The notes under the pieces: model-generated
The model's database searches: none
What the model saw: only the letters and a program-made list of their open reading frames with translations
Told to the model about the DNA's origin: nothing
Assembly (NCBI RefSeq): GCF_028641065.1
Contig: NC_073399.1
Location: 18,972,001-19,036,000, forward strand
Direction: 5' to 3'
Source of the DNA: Leucoraja erinacea
Lineage: Eukaryota
DNA length: 64,000 bases
Shown here: piece by piece, positions 5,014 to 59,243 of the stretch
Numbering within the stretch: the first letter of the stretch is position 1
How the letters are laid out: the number at the start of each line of letters is the position of its first letter
Program-made: the position numbers and the translations under genes

Positions 5014-18620
<13,607 letters not shown>

Positions 18621-20699: not shown

Positions 20700-21300
20700 C
20701 ATTTCAGCTCCGCCCAGAGGAGCAGGCTCCGCATTGTCACCTAGGAGACGACGCCCCGTCACCTTGGAGACGCGGTATTGCTTTGGACCAAAGATCTTAT
20801 AGCAAAGCTTTGCTATAAGATCTTTGCTTTGGACGATGCGCTAGGCCCCGCCTCGTCACCTAGGAAACGCGGTATTGCTCCGCCTCAGAAGCAGACTCGG
20901 CCCCGTCACCTTGGAGACGTGACTTACTCCACCCTCGGCCCCGTCACCTTGGAGACGTGACTTACTCCACCCTCGGCCCCGTCACCTTGGAGACGCGGCC
21001 TTGCACCGCCCCACCAAAGACTCCGCCCCGTCACCTAGGAGACGTGACTTACTCCATCCTCGGCCCCGTCACCTAGGAAACGCGGCCTTGCTCCGCCCCA
21101 GAAGCAGACTCCGTCACCTAGGAGACGTGGCCTTGCTCCACCCCCGTCCCAGGTCCCGCCCTTAAGACTAGGGAACCTCGCCATGCTTCTCCACCACTCC
21201 TCCTGGCGGTCTGAGTGACGGGGCGCCGCGCCGCACCGAGTAGACAGAAGTGCGCGAGGACCGGACTTGTGGAAAAGACGGTTTCCTTGGACCCTGGCCG
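20700..21300 (+). promoter_or_regulatory. CpG-island promoter of the RUN-PDZ-PTB gene, with nine X-box-like motifs and GC boxes
   Basis: GTCACCTWGGARAC at 20736, 20758, 20855, 20905, 20943, 20981, 21030, 21068 and 21113, interleaved with ctccgcccc-type GC boxes. Confidence 0.7.
20789..20826. mobile_element. 38-bp perfect palindrome with 8-bp TSD (P-like transposon footprint or mini-MITE)
   Basis: CAAAGATCTTATAGCAAAG/CTTTGCTATAAGATCTTTG flanked by CTTTGGAC on both sides. Confidence 0.8.
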
Positions 21301-21309
21301 TAGACGAAG

Positions 21310-21346
21310 ATGTCCAGAAAGGAACCGCTGCTAGGCGCCTTGAAGG
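21310..21346 (+). CDS. RUN-PDZ-PTB gene exon 1
   Basis: aagATG, MSRKEPLLGALK, donor G/GTGAGT, within a CpG island. Confidence 0.8.
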
Positions 21347-24300
21347 GTGAGTGCAGTCCCGAGTGAGGCGGAACGGCCTGATGATGGGGCGGAGGAGGGG
21401 AGGTCAGTAAAGGGGCGGGGCCGTGCCTGGGTTTGGGAAGGTGGGCAACTTGTCACTGGCCACCTCTCACTATCTTCGTAAAATAATTCCAAACTACTTT
21501 GAAACAATCAGAGTGGGGAACTTCATTAAAACTTATGTCAGGGTGGAGCAGAGCAGATACTGGGAAATATTTCATTATAATCTATGTTGAGAAAAAGTAT
21601 TTGAGCAAGACAGAATACGTTGAACGATCTTTCCTATTATTATTAATTTACTGACACGTCGACGTCCAATTTTATTAAGTAAATCAATTCGGCCAAGATG
21701 AATTGATTGCAGAGGTGGCATGGAAGAAGTATATTTTTTGGGGGAATTAGTATTTTGGGAATTGTATAATCACCACATGAAGAAATGTATCTGAAGCAGC
21801 TATAAATTTATGACTCATGTTTGAACAGCACTTTGGTGGAAAGACATTTGTGTTGCAATACAATGGCCTCTATAAATACCATCTTTACCTTGTATTATCC
21901 TATTGCCTCTGCATACTATTGTGCATTATTTTACAAATCTGTGACGGTGAGCATTCTTCTTTCTTTGGCTCCTTGATTTGCTTTCTTTTTACAGTCTTCC
22001 CATTTTCTGTGTGTGGTTCTCTATAACTTACTTATAGGTTACATATAAATTATCTATTTGCTATATCCTATCTCTCCACCTCCGAGAGTCCCTTTTCACT
22101 TCGTGGCCATCGTCTTAGAAATAAATAAGACCAGTATTCCGCGGCCAGTCCATGTGATGAAGAATGTTTATGGCACAGAAGGCCATTTAACCCATGTCTG
22201 CTGTTCAAAAAGGGTTAAATAATCCAATGCCAACTGGATCGGCAACCACATCAAATGGGTGGTACAATGGGTCAACTGTTAGAGTTGTTGCCTCAAAGTG
22301 TCAGAGAGCCCGATTTGATCCTGACCTTGGCTGCTATCTGTGTGGAGTTTGCATGTTCTTTCTCCCCATCACCATGCAGGTTTCCTCTAGGTGCTCCGAA
22401 TTCCTCCCACTTCCCAAAGACGTGTGAGTTTTGTAGGCTAATTGACCTCTGTAAATTGCCCCTAGTGGATGGGGAGTGTGAAAGTGGGATTGTTAATTCT
22501 GGCCAAATTTGAGATGCCAGGACACTAAAATTGAGTAATGGCTTCTGGGCTGCTAGACCATTTGGTCAATTTAAATGTGCCTTCTGCAGAATGGTGCCAG
22601 TTTGTCTAGAGCCTAGATAAGAGTTGCAGGAAGAGAATGGAACATCTGCAGATTCTGACAATTAGGTGTAAATTGCATGGAAAGAATTGGGTGAATGCAA
22701 ACCAGACATACACATTGTAAATATTGTTGCAAAGCTTTACTTTGCTAGATGTTGATTGGGTTAAGTGCTGAGCCTTGTCTGGGTTTCTTGAATATCCAGA
22801 CATTTGTGTTGCATAATTCATCTCTAAACTTTCATCTAGAAACTTTGTCAGATACATTGTATTAGTCACTGTATTATTGGGTTTGGGGAATGTCTATCAT
22901 GTACTGGGTTAATCGATATCTGTTATTGGACTGTATACAGACCACCCCCATATGGTTCGGCCCCTCAAGGTTCGGGGACCTATAAAAGGCCGCTCCCACG
23001 AGGTCCTGTGTCGATCTTCTGGGACTGCATGACCTTCTGGAGTGTCTCTTCTTGCAAGAGGCTAGGAGGGCTTGGCCAGGCAGATACAAGGATCAAACCC
23101 GCGGTGGTTTGGTATAGTAGTGGGAACCGTTATTGTGTTTTTCCAAAAAATAAAGTTTAGATGCGCAAGTGCTTGACTCAGTATTTTATTGACTGAAACT
23201 AGACTGGGGAAGCTTAGAATGAGCTATTTACAGGATAACATAGAAGAGTGTTTTTAAGTCCCTCTTTAAACTATTTCTATAATAAATGTAATATTATATT
23301 TCTAAGTGCCTATCAATGCCTTTAGCTTAACTGCCCTGGTCACCACACTCCATGCATTTTACTGATTTCACATTAAATCCTAAATACTGGTCAAAGACCA
23401 GGAGTTTCCTGAACCATCTTCTTGTCCATTTGCTCTACTGGACAGAATCCCTCTATGCATGCACTCTTGAATCATAAGTAACCATCTCATGAAAGGTACA
23501 CTCTATGAAACTATTCGCTTCAGGATCAGCTGCTGCTCGGGCACAAACCCAGAGCTTGACTTGCCCCAGCCGATGTCACTTCATTCTGATTTGATTTAAT
23601 CACTAAACAAAATGATGAACAACATAATTAATAATTTAAATAGAAAGTTGCACCATTGCACTTGCCTCACTGAAGTCCCTTGCTCTCCATACACTGCACC
23701 TTGATTGTTCAGATCTATTGTTGGTGCCCAGTGTTAAATCCAAAACAAACACATTAGGTTTGACTCGGATCAGGATAACAGAGTCCATAGGTTTTGTTGG
23801 CTTATTGAAGTCTTCAAAATGATAAAGGAATTTGATAAAGGATATGCAGGAAACGATTTCCTCTCACAGAGAGGAAATAATCGTGTTATGCTATCAATTG
23901 ATGAAAAATAGGCAATATCCATGTCTGACACAATTCTTCTTGGACAGTAGGATATAGTAATGAGGGATAGCAGGAATAATGAAGTGGAGGAAAAGAGTAG
24001 CCATGATATTATATGGCAGATCAGTCTAGCGGACTGATTGGCCTCCTACTACTACCATACGGAAAATTTATTTTTATGAAATAACCAATCACTGTTTTAT
24101 TCAAGTAATTGCTTCAAATTGGGAGATAAAAGAAAGTAGATAAAATTAAGAGTTCTGAATTTAAAAACTAGACTGTCTAGTTAAAAAGGGTGTGGTTGCT
24201 GTAGACCATTGATGAGCAGTGAATGCAACTTGCATTCTTCATCATGTCACTGATGTCTTTGTTGCCTCCATGGTGAGGTTTTGATTGTTGTGGTTCTGCT

Positions 24301-27300
24301 CACATAATTATAGGGCTTGAGTTGCGCATCAATTATCTTGTTGGGCTAGAAATCTAAAAGCCAAACAAATAATCCAGTTGACAGGATTTCAAATGCCATC
24401 ACAAAGTTTAATAGAATCTGGAAATGAAAAGGAATGACAGCCAAACTATTAAATTATTTTACAAACTGAACTGATTCACTGGTGAGTTTTTGGGACAGAA
24501 ACTACCAAGCCTCATCCAGTTTGAGCTCGTTCCACATCAGTGTTTTGATAATTAAGAGCCTCAGCAGTAGATTGGCATCACAGCCCATAATGATAGGTAA
24601 AAGGGTCATCACTTTCTTTTTGGCAAGTACGAATTGGTAGTACAGGTATATAAATACACCTTCACGCTATCTTTAGAATTTTAACCTTTAGAGATACAGT
24701 GAGGAAACAGCCCTTCGGCCCACCAAGTACATGCCGACTAGCGATTTAACTGTTGTTATAGTACATTAGAGTATAATGCTCCCCTCTCCCAAAGGGCAGG
24801 CAATACAAAACCTTGGATGCACAAAACACTAGATTCAGGAAAAACAACTTCCCCACTGTTATCAGATTACCGAACAGTCCTCCCATAAACTAGGTTGTAG
24901 CCCATATCTCCCAATCCACTTCATTGTAAACCTTGGAACATTTCTCTTGAACTGTATTGTTATAATGCTGCAACACTATATGTTTCTCTCTGCATTGCCT
25001 GTTGTACTTGTATATGGCTTAATTCTACTCGTATTTAGAATGATTTGACTGGGTAGCATTCTAACAAAGCTTTCACTGTATCCTGGTGCAAATACAACTA
25101 TTGCCATACGCAAGTACCACAGGTAGTGCAAAGAGAAAAATGCCAGAGTGCAGGTTAGCATAAGCGTTACAGTACCATGCAGCTGCAATAAATCGTTACA
25201 TCTTTTGGGAAATCACACAACAATGTCACTCTTCTGATGGACTCCTAGATGAGATCGTTTTTGATGGAATCGCAGAAGGAAATTGAGATTGTTGAGCACG
25301 TTGTATTCACAGAACAGGAAGAGGCCATTAGGTTTGTTGCACTCAGCTCAGTTTTTCAAAAACTTTTTATTTTTCAAATGAATTTCTGGTTTTCAGTTAA
25401 AAGCTGTTGGACCAGATTTTACTGATAATGCTGCTGTTCCATGTGTGCTACGGGCATTTTCCCGCAAAACTATCAGATTTGGGACTTCCTGTGCAAATAT
25501 GGAACTACTGAGCTTCCTAACAGTTTCTCTGTGAATTTTCTGATATTGGTCATCATGCAATCCATTGGTAGAGTGACAACATCCTGTGGTTTCACAGCAG
25601 ATGTGTTGGGGAATCTGCTGCTGAGCATGTGACTATCTCTTGTGACTCCATTCATTTTAATGGAGAAAAATACCTACAAGGGAAAGGAAACGAGTAGTTA
25701 AGTATCAAGTAATTTACATTTATTGAATTAATGTAAATGTAATTAACCAGGCAACTGAACGGTCCCTCATCAGCTAGAGTGCGGTCCCGACTTCCCTTCT
25801 GCCTGAGACCTTTAACCATCGTTTATTGAACTTCAATGTTATATCTTGCACTAAACATTGTACCCTTTATCCTTGGGTAGACAAAAATGCTGGAGAAACT
25901 CAGCGGGTGAGACGTGCATCTATGGAGCGAAGGAAATGGGCGACGTTTCGGGTCGAGACCCTTCTTCAGACTCGTCGCTTATTTCCTTCGCTCCATATAT
26001 GCTGCCTCACCCGCTGAGTTTCTCCAACAGTTTTATCTACCTTTGATTTTCCAGCATCTGCAGTTCCTTCTTAAACATTACCCATTATCCTTTATCTGTG
26101 CACTGTGGACAGCTTGATTGTATTCATGAATAGTCTTTTCTCTGACTGGATAGCACGCAAACAAAAGCTTTTCACAGTACCTCGGTACACATGACAATAA
26201 TAAACTAAACTTAACTTAATTGCATTTGAACTTAATTTTTTTTGTTTTTCTCTTTAACATTTCAATGTATGTTTAATGGTTTTTGAATGCTTCTGAATAT
26301 TCTTGCCACTCTAACTATTAAACAATTAAAATGTTTGGCAGTTAGTGGTATTTTGATAATCCTCTGTACCCATCTTCTACTTCTGAATTCGCTTGCTCCC
26401 TGGAAGAGCTGAAGCCCTTAATTCTATGATCGTCCGGGAATTTATTTACCTCAACTTTAAATATATCCAATGATCCAGCCTCCACCATTCTTTGGAACAC
26501 AGAATTCCTGAGACGCAGTCCTGTATCTTGAAACTTTGACCTCTCATTTGAGATTCTTCCACTATGGGTCTTTGTGAATTCCAACTAAACCATTGTTTCT
26601 GTGTATAAATGCCACACGCTAACTATACTCATTAATTTAAAATATTTATAATGTCAATCCCTGGGTGGTTTACAATGATCGGTTTGGAACAGATGAAGCT
26701 ATAAGAAAGCAGTCACTCTTCACTACATGTTCCACTTTACTACCCTCACTTCAGTAGCCTCTTTGTACTGCTGCAGTCATCAAATTGCATAATCTTCCTA
26801 CACTTTATTTTCATTTAACAAGTATCTGTTGAACACAGTCTGTGGCTGGGACTCCTGCATCCCCCAAATGCTAGGTTGCATACTTGCCTGGCTTTATCCT
26901 TCTGTTATCTGACAATTGTCCAAATTTAAGCTATGAGTAACCTGAGGGGTGTAACTGCATCCTGGATCAAAGTCTGCACATGTCAATCTCTCATGCCATA
27001 CAAGGCCAAAGGCTGAGACTCCATTGTAACTCTTAGCTGAAATTCCCCAGTATGCATATATTTACTGGCAGCATCTTGGGCTCTTTCTAGTTTCTCCCAG
27101 TTCTCAGATTGGCCCAGTTATTTCAGGGGAGAAACACCTGAAAATTGTTTTTCCTATTTAGTTCAGATAATTTCTGCATACATTCAGCAATAAATTATCC
27201 CAATTATAAAATGGGACTCCATGAGAAAGGCACCATCTGTGGTTAACAAAGACATCAAGGAAAATGTTTAATTGAAAAGCAGGGATTCAGACTTGCAGGG

Positions 27301-30300
27301 GCTGGTGGTAGACCAGAGGATTGGCAATTTAAGGATCCAATAGCAAATGATTAAGAAGCCCACAAGAGTGGAGAAAGTTGATTTTTAGAGAAAACATGAG
27401 TGCAATATCAAAACAAACAGTAAGAATAGGAAGAACCAGCTCGGGTAGGTGTGGGATTTCCAGAAAATGAGTCTGATGACTTGACAGGAAACAAATAAAT
27501 GGCAGATATGTCAAACGTAGTCAACATTAGTTTATGAAAGGTGAATCATGTTTGTGAAATTTGCTTGATTTCTTTGAGGATGTGACGGGTAGTGTTGATA
27601 TGAAGTTTTGGAGGAACATTATCAGTGGGGATTGAATGGTGGCTGTTGCCTACAAAAGAGTTGAGATAAATGGATCCTATTCAGACCATGGAATTGCAAC
27701 TGATGGAGTACACCAGGGATAGGTTCTTGGCCCTCAACTGTTTATTATAATGACTTGGAGGAGGGAATGAAATGTAAGGTTTCAAGTTTTTCCTCATGTT
27801 GCAAAAATATGTGGAAAGACATGTGATAAGGATGCTGTGAGTCTTCAACAGGACATGGAAAGATTAAATGAATGGGTTAATACCTACCAAATGTGGGGGA
27901 GTGGAGTTCATTCATCCATTAAAAGGAACAAACAGGTGGATTATTATCTAAATGAAGAGAGATTGCAAATTAATGAAGTTCAGAGGTATCTAGGTGTTCG
28001 AGTACATGAATCACAAAATGTTAATAAGCAGGTCTAACAAGTTAAGAGGGCAAATGGCATGTTTATTTTTAAATGTTGGTGTTTAATAATAATTTCTTAC
28101 AGTTGTACTGACTGTTGGCGACACACCTAAAATATTTGTACAGTTTTAATCCCTTAATCTAAAAAAGGATATCGTAGCATTGGAGAAAATGGTGGAAATT
28201 GATAGGAGCACAAATATTGATGTCATACAGTGTGAACACAGGCCCTTCGGTCCAACATGCCCACAACTGACCAATATGTCCCACCTACACTTCTTCCACC
28301 TGCCTGTGTTTGGCCCATATCCCTCTAAATCTGCCCTATCCACGTGCCTGTCTAATTGTTTATTAGATGCTACTATAGTCCCTGCCTCAACTACCTCCTC
28401 TGGCAGCTTGTTCCATAGACTCACCGCCCTTTCTGTGAAAAAGATAGTCCTCAGATTCCTATTAAATCTTTTACCTTAAACCTATGTCCTCTGATTCTCG
28501 ATTCCACTACTCTGGGCAAGAGACTCTGTGCATCTACCCAATCTATTCCCCTCATAATTTTATAGACCGCTATAAGATCACCCTTCATCCTTCTACGCTC
28601 CAAGGAAGAATCCCAGCCTGCTCAACCCCTCCCTATAGCTCAGACCCTTGAGTCCTGGCAACATCTTCATGAATCTTCTCTATACCCTTGCCAACTTGTT
28701 ACTCTGGCTCGAGGGTGGGGAACCTTTTCATGTTGCAATGCCGCATTAAGTTAGCTGTAATCTAATAAGGCCGCATCCAAGAAACTTCAATTAGATATAC
28801 AGGTACTTCAAAATATACATTATTTTGTAAAAATCAAACTACTATGTACTAACTTCAAGAAGATGAAAGAAAATTGTTAATTCAAAAGTTAATTAACCTT
28901 TTAATGACTTTGTTGTGACTGCATTTTGTGGGAAAGCATTTGAATATTTGGTTGCAACATGGAGGTACGCAGTTTCAGATGATCTTCCAGATGGGTATCC
29001 GTCATTTGTGACCTTAAGGGCGTCTTGATTTGGGTTAGGTAGGAGAACGTAGATTCGCAGCAATAAGTGGTTGAAAAGCAAGAAAGCATTTTTCGTGCAT
29101 GTCAAACGTACATTCTAGAGTCGCATTAGAACTAAATCATGAGCATAACAGGTGTTAAAATAGCCCTCATGATTTACTAATGTTTTAATTGTGTCCGTCA
29201 GTTGGGGAGGATTATTTTGTTGAATATTCTTTTACTCTTTGGTATTTTAAATACGTTCATTTTAAGAATAAAAATAATAAAAGACGAACAAAAACATATT
29301 AGTAAAAATAAAGGGATTTGTGCTCCAAAATTTGGATCCATTCAAAAGGCCGCACTTAATGGCCTAGAAGGCCGCAGGTTCCCCACCCCTGCTCTGGCTG
29401 ATCTTGCCTGGAGTGTGTAGAATTTTCAACTAAGTGTTTTTGAGTAGTCATCATCTTTGGTAATTCAACATATTTGCAAATGCAAGCTGCCATGATGTTT
29501 CACTGTGCTCATTTTCATTGTTGTTGAAAGCTGCTCAAATTTCAAGACCCCATCAATGAATATAACCCTAGTATGTTTTAATTCCCATATTCTTTAGTCA
29601 CGAAAGGGGATTCTCTGTAATATTGAAGACTCGCAGATCAGTTAGACCCTGACTTTTGCTGACGTAAATGTCTTTAATAATTTTTCCAAAAATAAATTTT
29701 TTTCCAAAAAAAATCCCTATTACTTATCTATTTCTCCCTTTCATTCATGATTTAGTTTGTTGAGTATGGCCATCATTTTGTTTGCTACATTGTCAATTAA
29801 TTCCTGTTAATATCATGGCCATCAGTAAAAATGCAGTCCCACCATTGCCTGTGTCTTTAATTTTCTTTTATCCCTTATGCGATCCACTAGCTTGTTTGGT
29901 TTTATTCCAACAGCTAGGCTAATTTAAATGCCTCCAAATATTCCTGCATGAAACAAATAATTATTTATTTAAATATTATTTTAACGCACTAGCTTTTAAG
30001 CTACTTGTTGTTTTAAATGTGTGTACAATGATCTATGTATATGCCATTTTTCTTTCTAAATTTCCCATAAGTTTAAAATCTCATATCTGATGGATATGGC
30101 GAATCAGTTCTGTCATTGCTCCAGTGAGACTATTTTATGGGTAAACACTTCTGTACTTATTTATTTTATTGAAGTGTTTAATGTCCCAAGCACATCCATT
30201 CCTAAAGATTATGGCAGGACAGTTCTCGTGGATTTTAATGCCGTGTTTGAGTTAATTCTGTGTTCTGGGAGACACTTTGAGATTTGATATCCCTGCATTT

Positions 30301-39300: not shown

Positions 39301-40307
39301 GATAATCACAATAAATGTTTTTATTGATGGTCAGTCTGGATTGCTAATCCAAAATTTCAAGAATTAATTATTTATCTCTGATAATTTCCAGTACTTTTTG
39401 TTTAAATTTAAATATCAAATAAATGTATTTGATTCCAGGTAAAGGGTCTCCTCCTCGAAGAACGTTCAGTATGCAGTAGTTTCAATTTTCATACTATAAT
39501 AACCTTTTAATTGCACCTTGTGTTAATTGGTTCCAACTAAAAACTGGATGGAGATTGACAAACTAATTCTATGTCTAGGTGTGTTATTCTGAAGTAATGA
39601 GATATTTCTGTTTGCTTTTTTTAGAACAGCAGTTTTCTGGATGAGAGCTGGCTCCTTCCAGTAAGTATAGGTATTTCTGACTCAAATGTATAATTAAAGG
39701 GAATGGCAGCAACCTCTGCAATGTGTTGCTCAAGATCAACATGGAATGATGTGGAAAGTAATGCCTAGAAATTGGTCATTTCTCTACCTTGTCTTTACCA
39801 GCTTTTACATTCTAATGACTTTTGTATTCAACAAGGGTCAAAAAGTTTATTCTAGCACAAATATCAAACTGCTGGAGGAACTCAGTGAGTCAGAGGCAGC
39901 ATCTGTGAAGGGGAATGGACGGATTACATTTTGGGTCAGGATCCTTCAGTCTGTCCATTTCCTTCAGCGGATGCTGCCTGACCCGCAGCATATAAAAGGC
40001 ATGCTCAATTGGGTTCAGATCGGGTGATTGACTTTGGCCACTCAAGAATTGACCATTTTTTAGCTTTGAAAAACTCCTTTGTTGTTTTAGCAGTATGTTT
40101 GGGATCATTAGCAGTATGTTTGGGATCATTGTCTTGCTGTAGAAAGAACTGCCGGCCAATGATTTTTGAGGCATTTGTTTGAACTTGAGCAAATAGAATG
40201 TGTCTATATATTTCTGAATTCATGAAGCTACTACCATCAGCAGTTGTATCATCAATGAAGATAAGTGAGCCAGTACCTTCAGCAGCCATACATTCCCAGG
40301 CCATAAC

Positions 40308-40343
<36 letters not shown>

Positions 40344-43300
40344 ACCACCGTGTTTTCACAGATGTGGTGGTATGCTTTGGATTTTGGGCAGTTCATTCTC
40401 TCCTCCATACTTTGCTCTTGCCATCACTCTGATATGTTAATCTTCATCTCCTTTGTCCACAAGACCTTTTTCTAGAACTGTGGTTGCTTTTTTAAGTACT
40501 TCTTGGCAAACTGTAACCTGGCCATCCTATTTTTGCAGCTAACCAGTGGTTTGCATCTTGCAGTGTAGCCTCTGTATTTCAGTTCATGAAGGCTTCTGCT
40601 GACAGTGGTCATTGACAAATCCACATCCGAGTCCTGAAGAGGGTTTCTGATCTGTCAGACAGGTGTTTGGGGATTTTTCTTTATTATAGAGAGAATTTTG
40701 TCATCAGATCAAGCTCTTCCTTGGTCTGTCAGTTCCCTTTGTGACTAGTAAGCTCACCAGTGCTCTTTCTTGTCTCCAACAGTTTTATTCTTGTTTCTCA
40801 GTCTCATAATGGCTTCATTGACCTTCATTGGCACAATTTTGATCCTCATGTTGATAAACAACAATAAAAGTTTCCAACGGTGATAGAAAGACTGGATGAA
40901 AGACTAGTTGCTGAGAACTCTCTTATACAGCATTAAGGAGGCAATTAAACTCACCTGAGCAATTACAAATGCCTGTGAAGCCATGTGCCCCAAACATTAT
41001 GGTGCCCTGAAATGGGGGGACTAAGTATAAACACAGGTATAATTTTTACCTGGTGAAACCAAAATATATTAAAAAAACTTTTAATAAAATCTGATAAATG
41101 TGCACCACATGCGGTTTATTTATTTTTTATTTTTTCCTTTTTTTTTCTCTATTACAAATTTCAAATTGTTGAGTACAGAGGCAAATAAATAAATGATTGG
41201 TTTTTGTCCCAAACATTATGGAGGACACCGTATTTAGGTCATTAAAATTTCAGCCTAACCTACTGAGCATTTGCACAATATTTTGCTTTAGTCATTTGGT
41301 TTCCAAGAGCAATAACCGAGTAATGATCTTGTGCCTCTTGCTACATTGGCCAAATATACTGAGACCAACTGTGGTATCACCAATGCAGATAAGTTAATAC
41401 ATTCAGCAGGAATTAAAGCCGGGAGTTTCTTGTTTGTATATCTGTAGGCTTCCTGCAACTACATCTAAAACATATTCAATTCTATTTTTGTACATTAACC
41501 TCCGGAATTCCCGAGGGTGATGGGTAACTTGTTTCTTGCTGCCTATGTGCTTGTGTTAACTCCAATTTGCAATAGCCCATGTAAGAGACTATTAGATAAA
41601 TTTAAGTGGTAACAAAAGGTTTGAAAAAAGTGTATTGGATCTACTTTACTCTCCCATTCCTTGATTTGCAGTTCTACTACACATTAAACTTCAAATCTAT
41701 TTAACCTTTAACTCAAAAGCTTTTGGGAGCAGAGGGGTGTACTGTATTATGCACTCTGAGGAGTTGACTAATCCAGATTTGTTCTTGCACAGGTGTGCGA
41801 GATGTATAACACGGTCCCTTGTCGAGAGCTGGGAATGGTACTCTGGTAAGCGGCAACTTTGCAAGAGAGGCCTCACCAAGAAATATGAATTGATTGAATT
41901 GTATGTTGCAATGATCTCTTTCTGTGCTGTAACCATTCAATGATTCAGTCCCTATAATGATGACTACAGTGAAAAGTGGAAATTACAATGCAGTGCAGTG
42001 GGGGGGGGGGGGCACGGTGGTGCAGTGGTAGAGTTGCTGCCTTACAGCACCATAAACTCGGGTTAGATTTTGACTACAGGTGCTGTCTGGCAGAGTTTGT
42101 ATGTTCTCCTTGTGACCACATGGGTTTTCTCTGGGTGCTCAGTTTCCTCCTATACTCCAAAGGCGTAAAGGTTTGTAGGTTAATTGGCTTCCGTAAAATA
42201 TTGTAAATTGTCCCTTGTGTGCAGGATAATGCTAGTGTACGGGGTTATTGCTGGTAGGCCGGTCTCAGTGGGCCGAAGGGCCTGTTTCTGCTCTGTATCT
42301 CTAGAGTAAAGTATTTAATCGTGAGTCTTAGTGCCTGGAGGTTCGTAAATAACTAGAAAATGCCCCTAACTTCAAGAATATCAGAATTTTCTGGGCTTAA
42401 GTGTAAAGATTCTAGACTTGTCTATAAGAGTGACGGTGAAATAAAAAAACTATTTGGTGATCTGGTGGTTTAATGCTGAGACATTAGAAAAAAATTGTGC
42501 CTACTGACAGCTGGCATTTCCTTACAGGTACACTGGTGGCCGTATTTTTGTAACGGAGGTTATTGCGGGAAGTCAAGCTGAAGCAGATGAATGTGTCCAG
42601 GCAGGAGACATTATCGACGAAATTAATGGCGTTGCTTTGAGAAATGCCAAAGGGGGAGAAGTACGTGCCTCTTGCTCATTGTCAAAGAATGGCATCTGTC
42701 CTACACAGCATGTGTTTGTCTTCATTGTTGTACTCCTAGTGCCATTGATCTGGAGTTAAATCTCAGGTCTGCAGTAACAGTTTACTCCTTCAGTTTCTCC
42801 ACCCACGGGTTATCGTGTTTCGGTTCATTCATAAGACGTGGCAATCATCAGCAAGGCTGTTATTTGTTAGTGATCTTCAAATACCTTCAAGATAGCCCCA
42901 CACCTTCAACCACTGCAACCCTTGTCAACCAGATAACCAATGATACCCAGTATCACTGCTGCAAATTAACTTCCACCTAATGGTCACGTCGCACAGACAC
43001 ATCTGCACTTTAGTCTGTTTGAACTGTTTTGACTATTTTACTGTTGTAATGTTCTTTTTACAAACCATGTTCTCGGGGTATCTAAATTTTATTAGTTATT
43101 TAAATTATGACATTGGATGGAAGCTGCATACCAAATCTCGTTGTGCTTATGTGCAATGACAATAAAATATAATATTATTATTATTATTATTATGCTAATA
43201 CGTTTGAGAATTATTATCCAGTTTAGTAAGTGAGTGATTAAATGTAACAACATGTTTGATCCAGTCAATAACTTTGTCTTGGTCCATCACAAAGCCAGGT

Positions 43301-46300
43301 TTGATGTTCAGTCTGACCCACTGCAGCTCAAGAAGTTTCTTTGAAGAATTTAGCGAAGATTCTGACGACTGCAGTGGCACTATTGAGAGCATAGCCTCTG
43401 AGTGAAGAGATCTCATTCTGGTTAAGTTTCTTACAATGTTCAATATATTGTACCTCAGGAGAAAAATATTTCCTTTGGAGGGCTGCAGTATCAATTCAGT
43501 AGGATAGTACTGAGGCTTAGACAGTTACTTTCAAGCTGGGTTGCTAAGCTCAGCATTGATTCCAATGACTATTGAAATTGGAGGTTGATATGATCAGGTT
43601 GTATAACATTAAAATAATTCCATAGAGTAGACACGATACATTGGATTCATACTTGAACTATGATTCTCTCTCTGAAAACGGAATCTTTTTGTGGATGCTG
43701 GGCATTAATTGAAGTTTGAGTATTCTTAGATAAGGGATTCAGTGATGAAGCAGCAGAGGTGAGTAACTCCTGAAGTACATATTAACAATGATGGTGATGG
43801 AGACCAGAAGAAGTGAACAGCCAATTCCAATTCCTAAGTTTCCATGCTGAGGATGGGTTTACTTGTGAAGAGTGTGCTTAAATACCTGAGAGTTTCAGTA
43901 ATTTATCCAATATAAGAGACCCCAGGAGAAGGATAATGAGAGGAATTCCCGAGGAAGTTGAGAGGGCAAAATAAAGGGATATGGTCACATGGTGATTCAT
44001 TTACTAGAGTTGCAACCAGAAGTACAAAGAAATCTGAGTTTGAATTCTATCATGGGAGCTGGGTATTCAAATTGAATTAAATGCATTGAATTAGAAAGTT
44101 ATTTATTTTTAAGAAGGAACTGTAGATGTTGGAAAATCGAAGGTAAACAAAAATGCTGGAGAAACTCAGCGGGTGAGGCAGCATCTATGGAGCGAAGGAA
44201 ATGGGCAATGTTTTGGGTCGAGACCCTTCTTCAGACTGCTTCTTAATTAGAAAGTTAAGTTGGTCTCAGTAACGATGATCACGGAACACCCACATTTTTG
44301 TTAAAAGTCCATCATTCATGGATTTCCCTTGAGGTAGTTAACCTGTCCAGTCTACCAGTCTACCAGTGACCCCAGACCCACCAATCTCGTTGAGTCTTAG
44401 TTGTCTTTTCATTGCGTCCTCTGAGCATTCCTTTTCAAAACTTGTTATTTTTCTGACCATGCCCTTTCCATTTGTTGCTGTGATTACTTCAGGCTCAAAC
44501 AGTTTTACAGAAACTTCGAGGAAAGCCGTTAAGTTTCCGCATGATTCACTGGAAATGGCACGATGGGTCGGTTTACAGACCCATGCTGCCTCATCTCCAG
44601 CTGATGCAGAAAGAGTTCCCTGACTTTCAGCTTCGATATGATACCAAATCAAACAAAGAGATGTCAGAAGACAGGCTGCAAGATGACAGGTGAGAATCTA
44701 ACCAACTCAAAGCTCGTTCTCATACCTGTGACTTTGGAGATACAGTGCGGGAACAGACCCTTTGGCCCACCAAATCCACATTGAACACTGACGACACCGT
44801 ACACTAACACTATACACACTAGGGACAATTTTACCGAAGCCAATTAACTGACAAACCTGTAAATCTTTGGAGTGTGAGAGGAAACCCATGCGGTCGCTGG
44901 GAGACAACACCAACTTTGTACAGACAGTACCCATAGTCAGGATCGAACGCGGGTCTCTGGCACTGTAAGGCAGCCACTACCACTGCCCACTGATTCTCTT
45001 AACTCTTGAAGGCCATAGCTAGCAGTGCACTTGGTTTACAGGCAAATTGGTTGGTTTCCCGATCATCAATCTGGCTTGATCCAAATAAAACTCATTCCCT
45101 TCCTGTCCGTCCAAATTCTGCCATTGTTTTGGTAAATAAAATGCCAGATAATTATCACCTTTAATCCTCTTAAACTATCCCATCACTTCTCCATTTTCAA
45201 CTCCCAAGGCATGAAGACTCTGTATCTCTTCTCAAAGACTGACTGTACTACCATAGCTGCCTCCACACCAGTCCATACTATTCCATTGAATCGTGTGGGC
45301 TAGCTTGAGTGATTTTGATTTGAAGTTGGGTGTGGTGGCATTTGGTGCTGAAAACACCAATCCACCTGTTAGATCAGCATTAATCGGCACCGAGCATCAT
45401 CCTGTACTGGCCAGTTTGAATTTATTTTATTTTTCTCATGGATTAATGGGCCCCAAGGGAGAGAGTTTAAACATGGACATGCTTGGTGTGGTTTAATGCT
45501 GAGGTTTTTGTGGATGCACTACTGAGGATTTTCTTTCTGCTGCAGGTTGCTGTATTCGCTGCGGTACTTGGGCCAGGTGAACATTGGAATGGTAAACACA
45601 GTTAGCAGTGAGTTGTCTGTGCTCCCCACTAATAAACAATAATTGCGGTGCTACATCAGGGAGCTTGGAGTCGGCACATGGGGCAGTTTTTGTTCCACAA
45701 ATGTTGAGGGGCTAAACGTAACTTTTTTAGTGAACTAGATTATGGAACTTCTCCAGCAGTTGTGTGATGCTACAGCAGGCATTTTGGGAAAAAATCTGTG
45801 TTAAATGCAATCAAGTGCTTTGTACATCACCAGCACATCTCCCAGCTTCGAATCTCAATACATCGTGCACAGCATGGTGATCACTGGGCTTCCACAGGGA
45901 TGTCAAATAACTTCAACAATGCTTCAGGTAGTCCCGTGTGAAATGTGACCATGTTACCAGATCAGTGAACAGCGAGTGCCTTGTACACTGATTAAGATAA
46001 TGAGAAAGTTCTGAGGAGATAACTAAATGTGATGAAGGGGAAAATGTAGAAGCAGTGTTTTTGGTTTTCTAGAAGGCATTTGATTAGGTTCCATATCAAA
46101 GGTTACTGATAATGCAAGTTGTGTGAAGTCGGACGCAATATAGCTGCTGGAGCTGATAAGCAGAAAACAGAGTCCAGATGTATCGATGATTGTCAGTATG
46201 TTTGCTTCCACAAAACTGCTCTGTTATTTCAATTGGAGCTCTCCCATGCACGGGGCAATCTCAGTCAGTGCAGCACTGATCATCTCCCCGACCCCTCCCT

Positions 46301-49300
46301 GCATCGTGACATTTCAGGTTGAAACCCTTCTTCAGACCCGTAATGTCACCTATTGCTTTTCTCCAGAGATGTTGCCTGACCCGCTGAGTTACTCCAGCAT
46401 TTTGTGTCTATCTTTGGTGTAAATCAACATCTGCAGTTCCTTCCCATACTGTCACTCTGTCAGACGGATTTCTGGATTGAACTGGCTCTTGGCTGCAAGG
46501 TGGCAGTTAGTAATGGAATACAGTGTCATCCTGAATTCATACAGTAAAGGCTAACAATATCATCATCTCCAAGTTCTGTGTGGGTTATAATAACACCCCA
46601 TGTCAGCAGAGGTGTGAGAAGGGTGGATCAGCTCGAAGACCTCATCTTGTGTAAGACGGCGTAATTTATTTTAGGTGAGATATTGGGTGTCGGATAACGG
46701 TGCAGAAAGGTACAGAAATGTACCTTGGCATTAACCATTTTGCTGAAGTAAGATGCACATGGGGAAAAAAATGAAATGGCTTCAGCATAACCAAGTCCAT
46801 TAAACTCTGAGAGCTAAGTACGTAATTGTACATTAAATGCTGTTTGCCTTAACTACCTGAAGTAAGGATATGACTGCATGGTTTAGTAGGTACTAAGGTC
46901 CGACTATCTTGATCATAACCGGTTAACTATATTATGCTTTTGAATGTGTTTTGCATGAAGCAGCCTGAGGAACGGTGTACAGAAATGGCTAACAGTATTT
47001 TTTCTCACAGTATGGCGGAAAGGAAGTACTGGATGAAGGCATTGAGAAGGTCCTGCAGCAAAATCTAGTACCACAGGTAAGATCATCCAATGATTAATAA
47101 ATAAATAACAGAGAAATGAGACCCAAATGTTGTGTCTTTACGGTGCCTCTGATACCAAATATTAGGCAGGTAGATGCACAGGGGCCACTGCCAGGTCCAA
47201 CTTTCCCATCAAGCTGGGCTGATCTGGATACATTTCACTTCCCTTCACCATCCACAGGCAACGTTACTGCAGCAAGTTCAAGAACGCAACCCCCTAACCA
47301 TTTCTCCAGTGCTGCGTAGTGGGCAGTTTTGTAGCGTAATAGATGAGTGGGAGTGAGAAGAACACTGCTGGGGGAACGAGGTCAAGTCTTACTAACTCCA
47401 ACTTGTGTAAGGGTTACATTCCTTACGGAGTCAAGGGATACGGGGAGAAGTCGGGAACGGGGTACTGATTGTGAATGATCAGCCATGATCAGTGAATGGT
47501 GGTGCTGGCTCGAAGGGCCAAATGGCCCACTCCTGCACCTGTTGTCTATTCTGTTGTTACATACATCGGAAACTGAAGTGCTACTGCGCACGCGGAAATT
47601 CAACGGGTTCACGTGGAAGCAAGCGCGCGAACAGCTAACTGGCTTGTGGAAACGGCCACATGCGACAGCAGCAGTGCACTACTACCGAGCTTAAAGAATT
47701 GCTTCCATAAGTGCGAGTTTACGCAAGTCGCCTATTATGTAAATTGAAGAGTTCTTGTATTGCGTGCGGTTCTGATCGCCCAAATACAGGAAGCATGTGG
47801 AGGCTTTGGAAAGGTGCAAAGTGGGTTTACCAGAATTACGCCTGGATTAGGGGGTATTAGCTACAAGGAGAGGTTCGTCAGACTTGGGTTGTTTATTATG
47901 GAAACAGTGGAGGTCTTTAGGGCAAGATGCAGACTCCTGCAATTCCTTGCAAAAAATAATCTGGGAAGTAGTCAATTCTGGGGGAAAATGGTACCTTGTA
48001 GCAAGTTCTATTGATGGCAGTAATGTTTTAACTCCATCCATTTTGTTTGTCTCTATTAGGAGGTGTTGCTCGATGTGAAGGAAACAGAAGTGATTAGTAT
48101 GGAAAACTCCACACAGGTAACGGGTTCATTGTCTCCATGGCAAAGTTTAAAAACTGATTGTTTAAGTTGAAATATTGATCATGTGCCTATTGGGGTGAGG
48201 GGTGGTATAACATGGGGTATCAAACATTCCTAAAACAGAATCAATAGTCAAATAGTTCCCACTGTCATGTTCTGCAAATCATTCCCAGGAAAGGTATAGG
48301 TGGGTTAGATGGAGAAGAAAGAGACCTCTACATTGTGCACTCCTGGTTTTTCTAGCTGCTCTCCCATCCCTACTCTAGCCAGATACTCATTTTCTAATTT
48401 TGTTGCAACCGTTGTAGGGGTTTTATGTCGGATTTCTCGACAATGCAAATGCAAACAAGTTTGAGGATGGTCAGCCTTGTCAGTTCTGATTTGCTCTCAT
48501 TGATATTTCAGGTGCTCTTTCATCATCATTACCCTGAAATTGCTTCGGTGGGACAACGGCTCGACAGGCGGGCCCTCTTTGCTTACTGTGTGGCGTAAGT
48601 GACAACCGCTGATTAAGTCTTGGACCCTGAGCCTCAGTGGTGGATGGATAGCCTGAAGGGCAGTGCAGCAGCCAGGCACCCTTGCCAGGACAGTGGTGTC
48701 AACCAGTGTGCAAAGAAAACATCATGGTCATCTGTGGCTCCACCCCCCTCTCCGTATCCACGGTCTCCTTTGCCAGGGAATTGCCCAGTGCAGCAGCCCT
48801 TGCCCCTCCCCAGCAGCTCCTGCCTTGCCCAGCAGCTGTAGCCATAGCTTTTTAATTTGAACCCCACTTCCAGAATTTTGAGCACATGGTTTAGACTGAT
48901 ACTGAGCCGTAGAGTGATGCAGCATGAAAACGGGCCCTTCAGCCTACCCTGTCCATGATGACCAAGTTGGCTGATCCATTTGCCTAAATTTAGCCCATAT
49001 CCTTCCAAACCTTTACTAGCCAAGTGTCTATTGAAAGTTGCAATTGTATCCGCGTCTATAGCTTCCTTTGGCAGCCCGTTTCAGATTTGAACCGGTCTCT
49101 GAGTGAAGATGTAACCCCTGAGGTACCACTTAAACCTTTCCACTCTCCCATTAAGCCTATGCCCTCTAGGTTTTGAATCCTCTATCCTACCATTTCTAAT
49201 TTCTGCACCATTTGCAACTTTATTACATCCTTCCTATAGCTGGGTGACCAAAACTGCACTCAATCATTCAAGTGAAGTCTAATGCAGAAATTGTAGCATG

Positions 49301-52196
49301 ATGATGCAATCCCTACCTATATCTTCACCACCCATCCAGATAGTGCATTCTGTATTCCAAACATCCTCTGGATGGGATAAGTTCTTCCTCAGATCCCGTC
49401 TAAATCTCTTGTGTTTACCTGAACCGATGCCCTTAGGTTTAGATATCTCTACTATGAGGAAAATGTTCCCACTATTCCCATCTATGCCACTCCATCAGGC
49501 TCCATGGAAACAAACTTATTTCTGCAATCTCTGCACACAATTGAGATGCTCCATACCAAGCAACATTTTGGTGAATCTCCTCTGCCCACTCCCCAATTCT
49601 TCCCATTGTATGTTAACGAGAACTATACACACTGCTTCAGCTTTGGCCTAATTAATATTTTTATATACCATGCCATCTTTGTTCTTATATTCTAGGCCTG
49701 GTTCATAAAAGGAAGTATCCCCTAAGCCACCTTCGCTATTTTATGTACCCCTGCTGCCACCTTCAGCGATCTTGGGCTTGTATATTAAGTCCCCCACTTC
49801 CTCACAACTCCAGTATGTATGTTCTAGCACTTATTAGTCCTCTTCAGATTGATTGTGATGTTGGGGGGGGGGGATCACAATTACTCTGAAGGATCCTGAC
49901 CCGAAACGCCATCTATCCATGTTCTCCAGAGATGGTGTCTGACCTATTGAGTTGCTCCAGTACTGTGTTTTTTGTAAACCAACATTTGCAGTTCCTAGTC
50001 TCTCTTAAAATTCCTGTAAACTGCCACCATCTTCACTATCAACAGTACTGACTATTTTATGTTATCTGAAAACTTATGAATCATGCCCCCCCCCAACATT
50101 TGTATCCATATTGTTAATGTATATAGCAAACAGGATCCAGGACCAACCCCTGTGGTGCACCCACCGTTGGTCACAGGCTTTCAATCACATTAACAACCCT
50201 CCATCATCACCCTCTGCCTCATAAACAACCATGCCAATAAACTATCCAGCATTTTGTGTCTACCTTCGATTCACCAGCATCTGCAGTTATTTCTTAAACA
50301 TGCCAATTTTGGATCCAGTTTACCAACTTGCCTTGGGTCCCATGGGTTTCCAAACCTTCCATATGGGACATTGTCAAAAGTCTTACTGAAGTGCATGTAA
50401 ATCACATCTACCACACTGCCTTTAAAGACATTTTGTTGAATATCTTTGATTAATCCCAGTTTCTCTAAATGCAGATTAATTCTATCCGTCTGATCATTTT
50501 CCACTAACCTTTCTCCGCTTGTCCCCCCCATTGAATACACTGACAAAGAAATTTAAAAATTCATACTCTATTAATAAATTTCTCCTTGCAGGGTTTGTAA
50601 TAATATCTGATGCCTCTCTGTGTGATTCTTGTGTATTAAAGGGGAGTTGTTTTATTTCAGGGTCTCTCCAGAAACACCTCGGACAACATCTTTTGACTGT
50701 TTGGTGTTTGAGTCCAGCTCGGTTAAAGATGCAACTGAAATTGTCTCGAGAATAGGCAAGTGTCTGTGGATCTTCAAATGCAGGGGAGAGCAGTCTTTCT
50801 CCTTTACCTATTTTCCAGAGTTAAATGCACACAAAACCTGTCCTACACTTATACCCTCGTGAGACTTTGTTGTATCAAGTAGACTACCTGTGGTTAGTGC
50901 TGTGCTTCCAGTTCCTTATCACGTAAAGGTTCCTAATCCACTATTAAATGCACTTTGATGCCAAAGAGATTCTTGTTACAAGCAGTGCCATGTACTCAAA
51001 GTCTGAAGAAGTGTTTCGGCCCGAAACGTTGCCAGTTTCCTTCGCTCCATAGATGCTGCTGCACCCGCTGAGTTTCTCCAGCAATCTTGTCTGCCATGTA
51101 CTCAAATGTTTGTGAGAAACTTATAGATTGCAGGGTGGGTGGCAGTTCTCAATACTACCACCCCTAGGACAGATGCATAGGAACTCAAAGGGAATGCCCC
51201 TGCACAGATCATCATGATCTGGTTTTGTGTTGTTCTAGTAAGGGCTTTCAAAAACTATGGAACTTCTAAAATATGTTATCTTCAGGGAGTAGGGTATGCA
51301 GAGTCTATCTGAAAGCTGGTCCCCCTTCCTCTGAAAATGCACGGCAACTCTTGTTCTCCACTCATGGTTACATTAACATTTATCAGCCTCTGCAGAGACC
51401 ATGGGGAGCAAGTCTCTCGACCCAAAACTTCGCCTATTCCTTCGCTCCATAGATGCTGCCTCGCCCGCTGAGTTTCTCCAGCATCTGCAGTTCTTTCTTG
51501 AACATGGGGAGCAAGTCCGTAGCTCCCTCAAAGACACAACACATGCATGGGGAAGTGAAAAAGGCATATTATACGGTTACCTTTATTGACAGGCATTGGT
51601 ATATAAATTGGCCTGTCACATTACAGCTGTATAAAAACATTGTCTAGAACGTACATAGAATATTTTGCGCATTTCTGGTCACCATACTAAAGGAAGGATG
51701 TGGTAGTAACAAAGAGTAGAGATTCACTAGGATGTTGCCTGGTATGATGTGCTGTAGTTCTAAGGAGATTGGAACATAAGGGGCGGAGGAGTGACCTAAA
51801 AGAGATTTATAAAATTATGAGGACATAGAATAGTGAGAATCCATTTTTTTCCCCAGGGCACAAGAGTCTAGAAGAGGGCAGAAATTTAAAATTAGAGGAG
51901 ATAAACTTAAAGGGGATCTGATGGGCGTATTTTCACCGTCTGCTGAATATATGGAACAAGCTGCCAAAGAAGGTGATGTAGACAGATATAATTACAATGT
52001 TTAAAAGGTGCTTGAACAGGTACTTCAATAAGTAGAGAAGATGGTCAATGTAGGCAAAGGAGATTAGTGAGGTTAGGTTGGCATGGATGAGATGGGCCAA
52101 AAGTTCCTGTTTGTACTGTACGACACTATCATCTTCATGTTAACTGTCTTTGATCTTTCAGCTGCAGGATTCCGAAACACTGAGTGGTTTGTGTGA
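21310..52196 (+). CDS. Uncharacterised RUN-PDZ-PTB(PID)-like domain protein, 16 exons, 427 aa
   Basis: Exons 21310-21346, 30997-31104, 31999-32074, 35599-35755, 36423-36468, 39224-39282, 39625-39660, 41793-41845, 42528-42660, 44493-44689, 45546-45591, 47011-47076, 48060-48116, 48512-48594, 50661-50755, 52162-52196. Phases all join into one stop-free 1284-nt frame. RUN-like motifs: LC.ILE.IL.KG, DYW, GRGRYYIRQAMN, EWY, F.LDL. PDZ-like: ELGM, IFVTEV..GSQA, GD.I.EING. PTB-like: Y.LRYLG, HYPEIAS, FAYCV, C.VF. Confidence 0.9.
22258..22490 (+). mobile_element. tRNA-derived SINE
   Basis: Same family core. Confidence 0.75.
22870..23232 (+). mobile_element. Possible solo LTR
   Basis: Compositionally distinct block TGTA...TACA with internal TATAAAA (22981) and AATAAA (about 23149); TSD not confirmed. 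Confidence 0.45.
25867..26075. repeat. Penelope-type fold-back repeat nested in a Rex1 3' UTR
   Basis: About 60-bp inverted arms; minus-strand CTGAAGA-GGGTC TC GACCC-GAAACGTC core at 25942-25969. Confidence 0.78.
27300..28190 (+). mobile_element. Old CR1 LINE fragment
   Basis: LQQDMERLNEW..YQM, YYLN, QRYLGVRVHES; many disablements. Confidence 0.75.
28220..28700 (-). mobile_element. CR1 LINE 3' end
   Basis: LWNKLPEEVVEAGTI...LDRHVDRADLEGYGPN. Confidence 0.85.
28710..29391 (-). mobile_element. Non-autonomous hAT (Charlie/SPIN/GTF2IRD2-like) DNA transposon
   Basis: Termini CGAGGGTGGGGAACC / GGTTCCCCACCCCTG; perfect 8-bp TSD CTCTGGCT (28702-28709, 29392-29399); remnant ORF 28901-29089 FSTTYCCESTFS...IKTPLRSQMTD.HL...QQSH-stop matches a hAT C-terminal dimerisation domain. 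Confidence 0.92.
30997..31104 (+). CDS. RUN-PDZ-PTB gene exon 2 (RUN start)
   Basis: CILNIQADKDPITDGHPQLTSLCDILEIILRKGIR, donor GTAAGT. Confidence 0.9.
31185..31770 (-). mobile_element. CR1 LINE 3' end
   Basis: LERVQRRFMRMLPGLSYRERL..L.LYSLE.RR. Confidence 0.88.
31999..32074 (+). CDS. RUN-PDZ-PTB gene exon 3
   Basis: PVLGLWRRDYWHWMEQLPQQDTCS, phases 1 and 2 fit the neighbouring exons. Confidence 0.88.
34500..35110 (-). mobile_element. RTE-clade LINE RT fragment
   Basis: YRTDGALFNLERLSAKTKV..RDLLFAD...TISAKKTEIMHQPAP. Confidence 0.88.
35599..35755 (+). CDS. RUN-PDZ-PTB gene exon 4 (RUN core)
   Basis: LPQLSMALEKTLACKRTLTAQGRGRYYIRQAMNRKIMAVTIHHLLHTPRLLE. Confidence 0.9.
36423..36468 (+). 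CDS. RUN-PDZ-PTB gene exon 5
   Basis: WYDRESSVLTNECFA, donor GTAAG. Confidence 0.87.
37386..37530. mobile_element. 145-bp hAT-type MITE
   Basis: 14-bp perfect TIR CAGTGGCGGACTGG; perfect 8-bp TSD ACTGTGGT (37378-37385, 37531-37538). Confidence 0.92.
37560..38255 (-). mobile_element. CR1/L2-group LINE 3' fragment, distinct from the common CR1 family
   Basis: LVRPHLDYAVAAWDPY...IERVQRQAARFV...LGW.PLQDR; short repeat tail (ccaagaa)n near 37570. Confidence 0.85.
38570..38970. repeat. Degenerate minisatellite of about 44 bp
   Basis: Consensus cactgtataacactggggtacagtactggtggggatgggtctgt, about 9 units. Confidence 0.85.
39224..39282 (+). CDS. RUN-PDZ-PTB gene exon 6
   Basis: PFLSLLLVLSQMKFTLDLE, donor GTTAGT. 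Confidence 0.87.
39625..39660 (+). CDS. RUN-PDZ-PTB gene exon 7 (36 nt)
   Basis: NSSFLDESWLLP, strong acceptor, donor GTAAGT. Confidence 0.85.
39988..41230 (-). mobile_element. Degenerate Tc1-type transposon, one end truncated
   Basis: Frameshifted transposase with QQDNDPKHTA, ILEWP and SQSPDLNPIEH; TIR ending at 41230 followed by TA; inner direct repeat of the TIR motif near 40990. Confidence 0.9.
41793..41845 (+). CDS. RUN-PDZ-PTB gene exon 8 (PDZ start)
   Basis: VCEMYNTVPCRELGMVL, donor GTAAG. Confidence 0.85.
42010..42312 (+). mobile_element. tRNA-derived SINE, full length
   Basis: ggcacggtggtgcagtggtagagttgctgccttacagc...gggccgaagggcctgtttc. Confidence 0.88.
42528..42660 (+). CDS. RUN-PDZ-PTB gene exon 9 (PDZ core)
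   Basis: YTGGRIFVTEVIAGSQAEADECVQAGDIIDEINGVALRNAKGGE. Confidence 0.92.
44493..44689 (+). CDS. RUN-PDZ-PTB gene exon 10
   Basis: AQTVLQKLRGKPLSFRMIHWKWHDGSVYRP...RLQDD, donor GTGAG. Confidence 0.88.
44733..44990 (-). mobile_element. tRNA-derived SINE
   Basis: Reverse complement of the family consensus. Confidence 0.85.
45546..45591 (+). CDS. RUN-PDZ-PTB gene exon 11 (PTB start)
   Basis: LLYSLRYLGQVNIGM. Confidence 0.85.
47011..47076 (+). CDS. RUN-PDZ-PTB gene exon 12
   Basis: YGGKEVLDEGIEKVLQQNLVPQ, donor GTAAG. Confidence 0.87.
48060..48116 (+). CDS. RUN-PDZ-PTB gene exon 13
   Basis: EVLLDVKETEVISMENSTQ. Confidence 0.85.
48512..48594 (+). CDS. RUN-PDZ-PTB gene exon 14
   Basis: VLFHHHYPEIASVGQRLDRRALFAYCV, donor GTAAGT. 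Confidence 0.88.
48905..50540 (-). mobile_element. Fragmented CR1 LINE(s) with nested Penelope-type repeat
   Basis: VDVIYMHFSKTFDNVPY RT motif (ORF 50271-50546) and a CR1 3' end near 48910-49150. Confidence 0.7.
50661..50755 (+). CDS. RUN-PDZ-PTB gene exon 15
   Basis: VSPETPRTTSFDCLVFESSSVKDATEIVSRI, non-canonical donor AG/GCAAGT. Confidence 0.85.
51550..52130 (+). mobile_element. CR1 LINE 3' fragment
   Basis: Degenerate match to the CR1 copy at 6050-6830. Confidence 0.75.
52162..52196 (+). CDS. RUN-PDZ-PTB gene exon 16 (coding part)
   Basis: acceptor gatctttcag, then (A)AGFRNTEWFV-stop. Confidence 0.82.
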
Positions 52197-53340: not shown

Positions 53341-53346
53341 AATAAA
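53341..53346 (+). terminator. Candidate polyadenylation signal of the RUN-PDZ-PTB gene
   Basis: AATAAA about 1.15 kb after the stop, followed by T-rich sequence. Confidence 0.5.
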
Positions 53347-53589
53347 AACTTTATTTACATTTTCTCTTACAATTTTTTTTAATGGTCCTGAATGCACTGT
53401 GATCACTATTTAAATGTTAAATTCACAAAACAGCATGGAAACAGGTCCATTGCCTTACTGAGTCTGTGCCAACCTGTGATCACCCCGTCAAAATTAGACA
53501 CCAGGGGCAATTTACAGAAGCCAATGAACATACAAACCTGTATTGGAGGAAACCGAGCACCTGAAGAAAACCCATGCAGTCGCAGGAAG

Positions 53590-57487: not shown

Positions 57488-59243
<1,756 letters not shown>

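Follow-up and report, generated by a model that had tools for sequence, protein, structure and literature searches.

Characterised RUN effectors connect GTPases to motors, tethers or lipids. Among them, PLEKHM1 and SKIP/PLEKHM2 are Arl8b effectors with an N-terminal RUN domain, and FYCO1 and RUFY1-4 combine such a domain with a long coiled coil and a FYVE finger. Two further kinds of adaptor bear on the locus described here: ARH, Dab, Numb, Fe65 and JIP1 hold cargo through phosphorylation-independent PTB domains, and X11/Mint/LIN-10 carries a PTB domain followed by tandem PDZ domains. In a 64,000-nucleotide stretch of the skate Leucoraja erinacea (contig NC_073399.1, positions 18,972,001 to 19,036,000 of the forward strand; hereafter the window), a gene at 21310..52196 on the plus strand joins a RUN, a PDZ and a PTB domain in one protein of 427 amino acids (aa). 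The gene is real and intact, and it belongs to an animal-wide family that databases hold under placeholder names.

With PLEKHM1 and SKIP/PLEKHM2, the skate protein shares the N-terminal RUN domain and its basic signature; unlike them, it has no PH or Rab7-binding domain, carries PDZ and PTB domains, and is much shorter. Its RUN fold is closest to that of FYCO1, but the long coiled coil and FYVE finger of FYCO1 and RUFY1-4 are absent, and a role as an activating motor adaptor is unlikely. The PTB fold is common to ARH, Dab, Numb, Fe65 and JIP1, and an invariant phenylalanine in the last helix may be a further point of likeness; unlike in those proteins, the PTB domain stands at the C terminus, coupled to a RUN domain, and no long clathrin/AP-2-binding tail is present. 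X11/Mint/LIN-10 likewise contains both PTB and PDZ domains and has a hydrophobic C terminus that is conserved, whereas in the skate protein a single PDZ domain precedes the PTB domain and a RUN domain stands in front. The closest entries are members of the same family, with no sequence-level difference: si:ch211-250n8.1 in fish, LOC417372 in chicken and LOC116988012 in Amblyraja radiata, all in RefSeq and UniRef with no function given. An NCBI CDD model, PTB_LOC417372, gives the same RUN-PDZ-PTB order, with function unknown. The architecture is unusual among RUN proteins, known to databases but unstudied. Sequence and domain order were already public; added here are the sponge-to-bird range, the apparent mammalian gap, a proposed residue-level mechanism and a promoter lead. 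The original prediction had called the gene unnamed, which holds for its uncharacterised function (no named or characterised orthologue was found) but not for its database entries.

The gene comprises 16 exons of 35-197 nt, at 21310-21346, 30997-31104, 31999-32074, 35599-35755, 36423-36468, 39224-39282, 39625-39660, 41793-41845, 42528-42660, 44493-44689, 45546-45591, 47011-47076, 48060-48116, 48512-48594, 50661-50755 and 52162-52196, all on the plus strand. All 15 introns end in AG and 14 begin with GT; the sole GC-AG intron, intron 15 (50756..52161, plus strand), fits the consensus in the rest of its donor site, and its join is backed by the RefSeq match that follows. The spliced coding sequence of 1284 nt translates to 427 aa and a stop, with no internal stops. 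A database search with exon 10 alone recovered the 427-aa RefSeq protein LOC116988012 of Amblyraja radiata, to which the model aligns at 419/427 identical residues with eight differences and no gaps; because of this gap-free alignment, the model is not a chance construction. The borders are fixed, as those of an intact, stop-free 16-exon gene of the kind first proposed. Exon 10 has one match only in the skate genome. Identity is 98% to LOC116988012 and 50-62% to bony vertebrate members, which share the length and the tail. A Leucoraja erinacea RefSeq isoform matches at 235/235 and 112/113 residues and is 81 aa shorter than the 427-aa form; the missing 81 aa equal the length of exons 10-11 (44493-45591), in frame, so that the end of the PDZ domain and the start of the PTB domain would go.

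Four sequencing runs were aligned over 35400-54400, where reads from short and long interspersed nuclear elements (SINEs and LINEs) dominate and signs of splicing are indirect only. In the relative X5, whose status as RNA is a guess, variants in exons 4, 9 and 10 share one contig depth (29.5), with piece ends only a few bases from exon limits, and a piece of X5 starts 2 bases from the exon-16 acceptor. Full-length open reading frames of frog-like, teleost-like, galliform and coral family members lie on Logan contigs of 1.4-2.6 kb, which implies spliced mRNA for those members. The SINEs at the locus attract very deep RNA coverage, and fragments resembling Tc1-type transposase and LINE reverse transcriptase by eye occur at 39800-40400, at 63440-63937 and in several introns.

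Pfam scans of LOC116988012 (cut-offs 22 bits for RUN, 23.2 for PDZ and 20.9 for PID) returned all three domains, and nothing else above cut-off, hence no PH or Rubicon-homology domain; none of the five proteins scanned matched a FYVE finger. In skate coordinates, all on the plus strand, the RUN domain with a conserved C-terminal extension spans aa 1-173 and exons 1-7 (21310..39660; PF02759, 53.1 bits), the PDZ domain aa 174-256 from exon 8 into the first part of exon 10 (41793..44555; PF00595, 32.9 bits), and a Dab/ARH/Fe65-like PTB domain aa 299-424 from the 3' end of exon 10 into exon 16 (44682..52184; PF00640, 21.5 bits). Single-exon searches gave E 6e-8 for PDZ and E 0.009 for RUN. Structure comparison covered the RUN and PTB models and agreed with both calls: the RUN model (residues 1-173) matches the FYCO1 RUN domain at Z 22.0, with a root-mean-square deviation (rmsd) of 2.7 over 166 residues, and the PTB model (residues 300-427) matches that of ARH at Z 18.1, rmsd 2.1 over 123 residues. 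The PDZ domain is supported by Pfam, invariant columns and secondary structure; its binding loop has the form x-L-G-hydrophobic (L186-G187), and G187 is invariant in all 80 aligned sequences chosen as full-length members (41 vertebrate, 39 invertebrate), over which conservation is counted throughout. At position 191, in the second PDZ strand (exon 8, 41833-41845), there is a skate-specific Trp in place of the Arg of 40/41 vertebrate sequences. The RUN-PDZ-PTB order called by eye in the original prediction is upheld, PID by a narrow margin.

AlphaFold2 models built from 40 and 80 sequences have mean predicted local distance difference test (pLDDT) values of 81.5 and 88.2 and predicted template modelling scores of 0.69 and 0.66; pLDDT falls below 50 only in the linker at ~286-298 and in the last few residues. 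The models contain no long coiled coil, the longest predicted helix being 19 residues. In the Atlas, the model for a beetle member can be superposed on two further clusters of the family, with template modelling scores of 0.76-0.78 across 392-410 residues, consistent with a fixed three-domain unit as modelled. Modelling residues 1-282 and 294-427 as a complex, with no alignments used, scored 0.00 and is not taken as evidence either way.

The conserved residues include the RUN arginines, the glycine of the PDZ loop, the predicted PTB groove and the C-terminal tail. In the RUN domain, the basic signature G96-R97-x-R99-x-x-x-R103 (exon 4, 35663..35686, plus strand), with K45 in exon 2 at 31092, aligns with PLEKHM1 in structure 8jc5 such that K45, R97, R99 and R103 match H60, R117, R119 and R123. 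These four PLEKHM1 residues are required for Arl8b binding, according to the available text of PMC5379943. The skate protein thus carries basic residues at all four equivalents, a property necessary for an Arl8 effector and not specific to one; across the family the basic share at the four positions is 79%, 97%, 100% and 100%. The top two RUN sequence matches are FYCO1 (E 1e-8) and Arl8b-bound PLEKHM1 (E 5.6e-8), and the closest solved folds are FYCO1 and Arl8b-bound SKIP (Z 19.7), with Arl8b-bound PLEKHM1 at Z 17.1. The conserved arginines argue for a working GTPase surface, and leave the partner GTPase unspecified.

The PTB fold lies nearest ARH, Fe65 (Z 18.0) and Numb (Z 17.9), in a range of 15.8-18.1 that includes Dab. 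G371, G419, F420 and T423 are invariant, and I367 and S368 beside G371 are nearly so. NPxY binding by PTB domains depends on a conserved Phe, as described in the available text of PMC3599065, and F420 in the last PTB helix may be its equivalent; a PTB-only profile of four fragments was too shallow for a residue-level alignment over F420. The protein ends in an aromatic-x-Val tail and stop (52185..52196, plus strand), a candidate PDZ-binding motif. The C-terminal pattern GF..T.[WFY].[VILM] recurs in 73/80 full-length members from coral to birds (39/41 vertebrate, 34/39 invertebrate), and among unselected vertebrate hits 105/121 share the five terminal residues. The three terminal residues, unplaced in the model (pLDDT <50), resemble a PDZ ligand by sequence. 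By eye, no kinesin-light-chain or LC3 motif was seen in the tail.

Two full-length searches, which considered near-length proteins and in the case of the turtle query scored the top 8000 candidates, gave 365 and 363 hits; the best 120 of each were listed, altogether 161 different clusters. By species name these belong to cartilaginous fishes, ray-finned fishes, coelacanth, lungfish, amphibians, reptiles and birds. A profile search gave 776 representatives, 150 of them listed, many full-length at 24-39% identity. Thirty clusters were looked up by name (29 of the 150 and one more), 21 of which had a taxon; neither Drosophila nor C. elegans is represented there. Members so identified come from lamprey, two tunicates, sea urchin, crab, copepod, tick, damselfly, a bug, three beetles, a fluke, three basal nematodes, coral, Trichoplax, a calcareous sponge (639 aa, extended at its C terminus) and galliform birds, and one protist protein has the RUN domain alone in common. 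Because sponge, Trichoplax, coral and other invertebrate members were found, the family is pan-animal and older than vertebrates, as judged from sequence; the ancestral vertebrate gene of the original prediction gives way to one ranging from sponge to birds. In a quick midpoint-rooted tree, lamprey groups with jawed vertebrates (support 99). The Atlas holds the family as three unnamed or auto-named clusters. A 901-aa Trichinella nativa entry named Tectonic-2, a ciliary transition-zone name, has the family member as its N-terminal part, and is probably two neighbouring genes fused by annotation.

Building on an established gene, three domains, conserved binding-site residues and an animal-wide range, we infer, with about even confidence, a cargo adaptor recruited by a small GTPase, probably of Arl8 type, that does not activate a motor. 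Docking would take place between the RUN domain and a small GTPase in its GTP-loaded form, with Arl8 on endolysosomes the likeliest partner and a Rab or Rap the alternative; membrane proteins would be held by their NPxY-type and C-terminal tails through the PTB and PDZ domains; and the free aromatic-x-Val tail would plug into another PDZ scaffold. Such an adaptor would sort or hold receptors on the GTPase-marked membrane. A motor-activating role is unlikely because there is no long coiled coil; of the earlier proposal that the protein links a GTPase or motor to cargo, the GTPase-to-cargo half thus remains the best inference and the motor half goes unsupported.

Several observations weigh against this assignment. 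The K45 position varies in invertebrates, with K or R in 22/39. RUN domains that bind Rap2, Rab35 and Rab6 score nearly as high in fold comparison (Z 18.5, 17.7 and 15.0) and the basic signature is general to RUN domains, so that Arl8 is not singled out. The PID score is marginal (21.5 vs 20.9 bits), and falls under the cut-off in another of the proteins scanned. Finally, a strongly conserved basic lipid patch was not seen in the PTB domain, where three positions are 59-74% basic among the 80 sequences.

The upstream region offers a different reading, in which the protein would be a ciliary trafficking adaptor under RFX factors, with its place of action at the base of the cilium or in sperm and sensory cells. 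Nine palindromic X-box-like 14-mers lie at 20736..21126, most of them in a ~38-bp tandem array within a CpG island (observed/expected 0.82). Their distance upstream of the ATG is 184-574 bp, and the rest of the window has none. They give 18 strand matches against 3.9 expected, a number reached in 0/100 shuffles, but the pattern was picked after the sequence had been viewed and most sites are tandem copies, so that the shuffle test overstates. All nine fit the degenerate consensus RYYNYY N1-3 RRNRAC published in PMC2375033, whereas the strict form GTNRCC..RGYAAC fits none and GYTNYY..RRNRAC two. Functional X-boxes cluster close to the start site (in the available text of PMC5838959), but an X-box by itself does not predict RFX control (likewise in PMC2375033); the main text of PMC5024701, in the part available, gives no consensus. 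The family does occur in strongly ciliated early-branching animals. The array, which is specific to this locus and not found elsewhere in the skate genome, lies between two head-to-head starts and could serve GALK1 instead. We regard the ciliary reading as unlikely.

Inserted among these sites is a perfect palindrome of 38 bp (20789..20826) flanked by a target-site duplication of 8 bp, a tiny dispersed transposon-like element. The skate genome holds seven exact copies, of which five, the one in the window among them, have a perfect duplication, as have all three variant copies checked; BLAST returned 78 rows, many counted on both strands. The palindrome resembles a pair of terminal repeats from a hAT-type transposon set directly against each other, and the element, though unusually small, seems still to have been mobilised.

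The close Rap2 and Rab35 scores invite the further possibility that the protein is a plasma-membrane scaffold for signalling or junctions, linked to Rap or Rab, rather than an endolysosomal sorter. The RUN domains of the Rap2-interacting protein and of Rab35-bound RUSC2 compare about as well as that of SKIP, the PDZ sequence matches are junction scaffolds such as INADL, ZO-1 and MPDZ, and a conserved tail would fit a network of PDZ proteins. The PDZ matches are weak and generic, however, and the top RUN matches remain FYCO1 with PLEKHM1 by sequence and with SKIP by fold. We consider such a scaffold rather unlikely.

The tail might alternatively act within the protein. In X11/Mint, the protein's own tail occupies the PDZ groove, and here too the tail could fold into the PDZ groove until a GTPase opens the protein, an autoinhibition that would be compatible with the adaptor role. 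The wide conservation of the tail motif favours this, as does the placing of Lin-10/Mint-like clusters as the nearest other PTB-PDZ proteins by Atlas features (score 0.78, a lead only). Against it, the tail has pLDDT <50 in both AlphaFold2 models, and in the model from the deeper alignment T423 forms part of the final PTB helix, which explains part of the motif conservation without a PDZ contact. Such a latch is a doubtful addition to the GTPase-recruited adaptor that we prefer.

Mammals are missing from all 161 listed vertebrate clusters, a count from protein searches in which mammalian genomes themselves were not searched. The original prediction of loss in some lineages stands to that extent, as an apparent absence from mammals. 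The turtle-query listing extends past sharks, chimaera and sturgeon, so that a mammalian orthologue, if of usual length and rate, would be expected among the hits listed. A single loss on the mammalian stem is probable and would have left GALK1 beside H3F3B, as in human. A diverged, truncated or unannotated copy might instead persist, for example in monotremes: 245/365 and 243/363 hits fall outside the 120 listed from each search, the length limits and the top-8000 restriction apply, and names were looked up for 29 of the 150 listed representatives out of 776. These same limits count against a clean mammalian absence. On the other side, the three unnamed clusters among the 161 are frog-like, teleost-like and galliform, and vertebrate-like representatives of the profile search mostly have high-identity best matches in birds, reptiles, frogs or fishes; survival in mammals therefore seems improbable. 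Genes that disappeared on the mammalian stem form a known class, with 147 chicken genes lost before eutherians in the available text of PMC3296468, and the present gene may already be in that list.

A few entries are auto-named RUFY4, RUFY1-like, FYCO1 or PLEKHM1, which might point to an artefact or to a fragment wrongly split from a known gene (RUFY4 or FYCO1, for instance); this is scarcely credible given the gap-free agreement with an independent RefSeq model, the spliced mRNA implied by the Logan contigs and a FYVE match in 0/5 proteins scanned.

The setting is as originally described, between GALK1 and an H3.3 gene; in human, GALK1 and H3-3B are neighbours. GALK1 (galactokinase; 7300..18471, minus strand, 3' limit unmapped) stands head to head with the RUN-PDZ-PTB gene, their ATGs ~2.8 kb apart, and its start sits within a 39-bp tandem duplication (18417-18499) that yields two in-frame ATGs. 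Tail to tail with the RUN-PDZ-PTB gene is an intron-containing histone H3.3 gene (57488..59237, minus strand), with H3.3-type residues as read by eye; it is labelled H3F3B rather than H3F3A from synteny, not from protein sequence. The skate order is ITGB4(+), GALK1(-), RUN-PDZ-PTB gene(+), H3.3(-), UNC13D(-), with ITGB4 and UNC13D just beyond the window. The last C2 exons of UNC13D lie ~7 kb beyond the H3.3 ATG (59237), leaving little space for UNK, which in human sits between H3F3B and UNC13D, and a local rearrangement near UNC13D/UNK is possible. GALK1, H3F3B, UNK and UNC13D appear in that order in a list of candidate genes, three of them at 17q25.1, in the available text of 10.1101/683367, which is not a map.

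We found no papers on the family under LOC417372, ch211-250n8.1, LOC116988012 or the domain combination, and the gene names are absent from the supplement files searched (PMC4199137, PMC10810531, PMC8405809, PMC3889689 and PMC5901865), whose tables could list genes under different identifiers. The family predates the coral-vertebrate split and has been retained since, and its apparent absence from mammals would explain the lack of papers. A RUN domain fused straight to two readers of cargo tails would differ in design from the characterised RUN effectors. The fullest version of the proposal, an animal-old Arl8-type effector that reads cargo tails through PDZ and PTB, belongs to an RFX ciliary programme and was deleted in the mammalian ancestor, is a long shot; if true, it would reveal a receptor-sorting route out of sight for mammal-centred cell biology. 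The value of the finding lies in an overlooked, testable protein rather than in a new kind of system.

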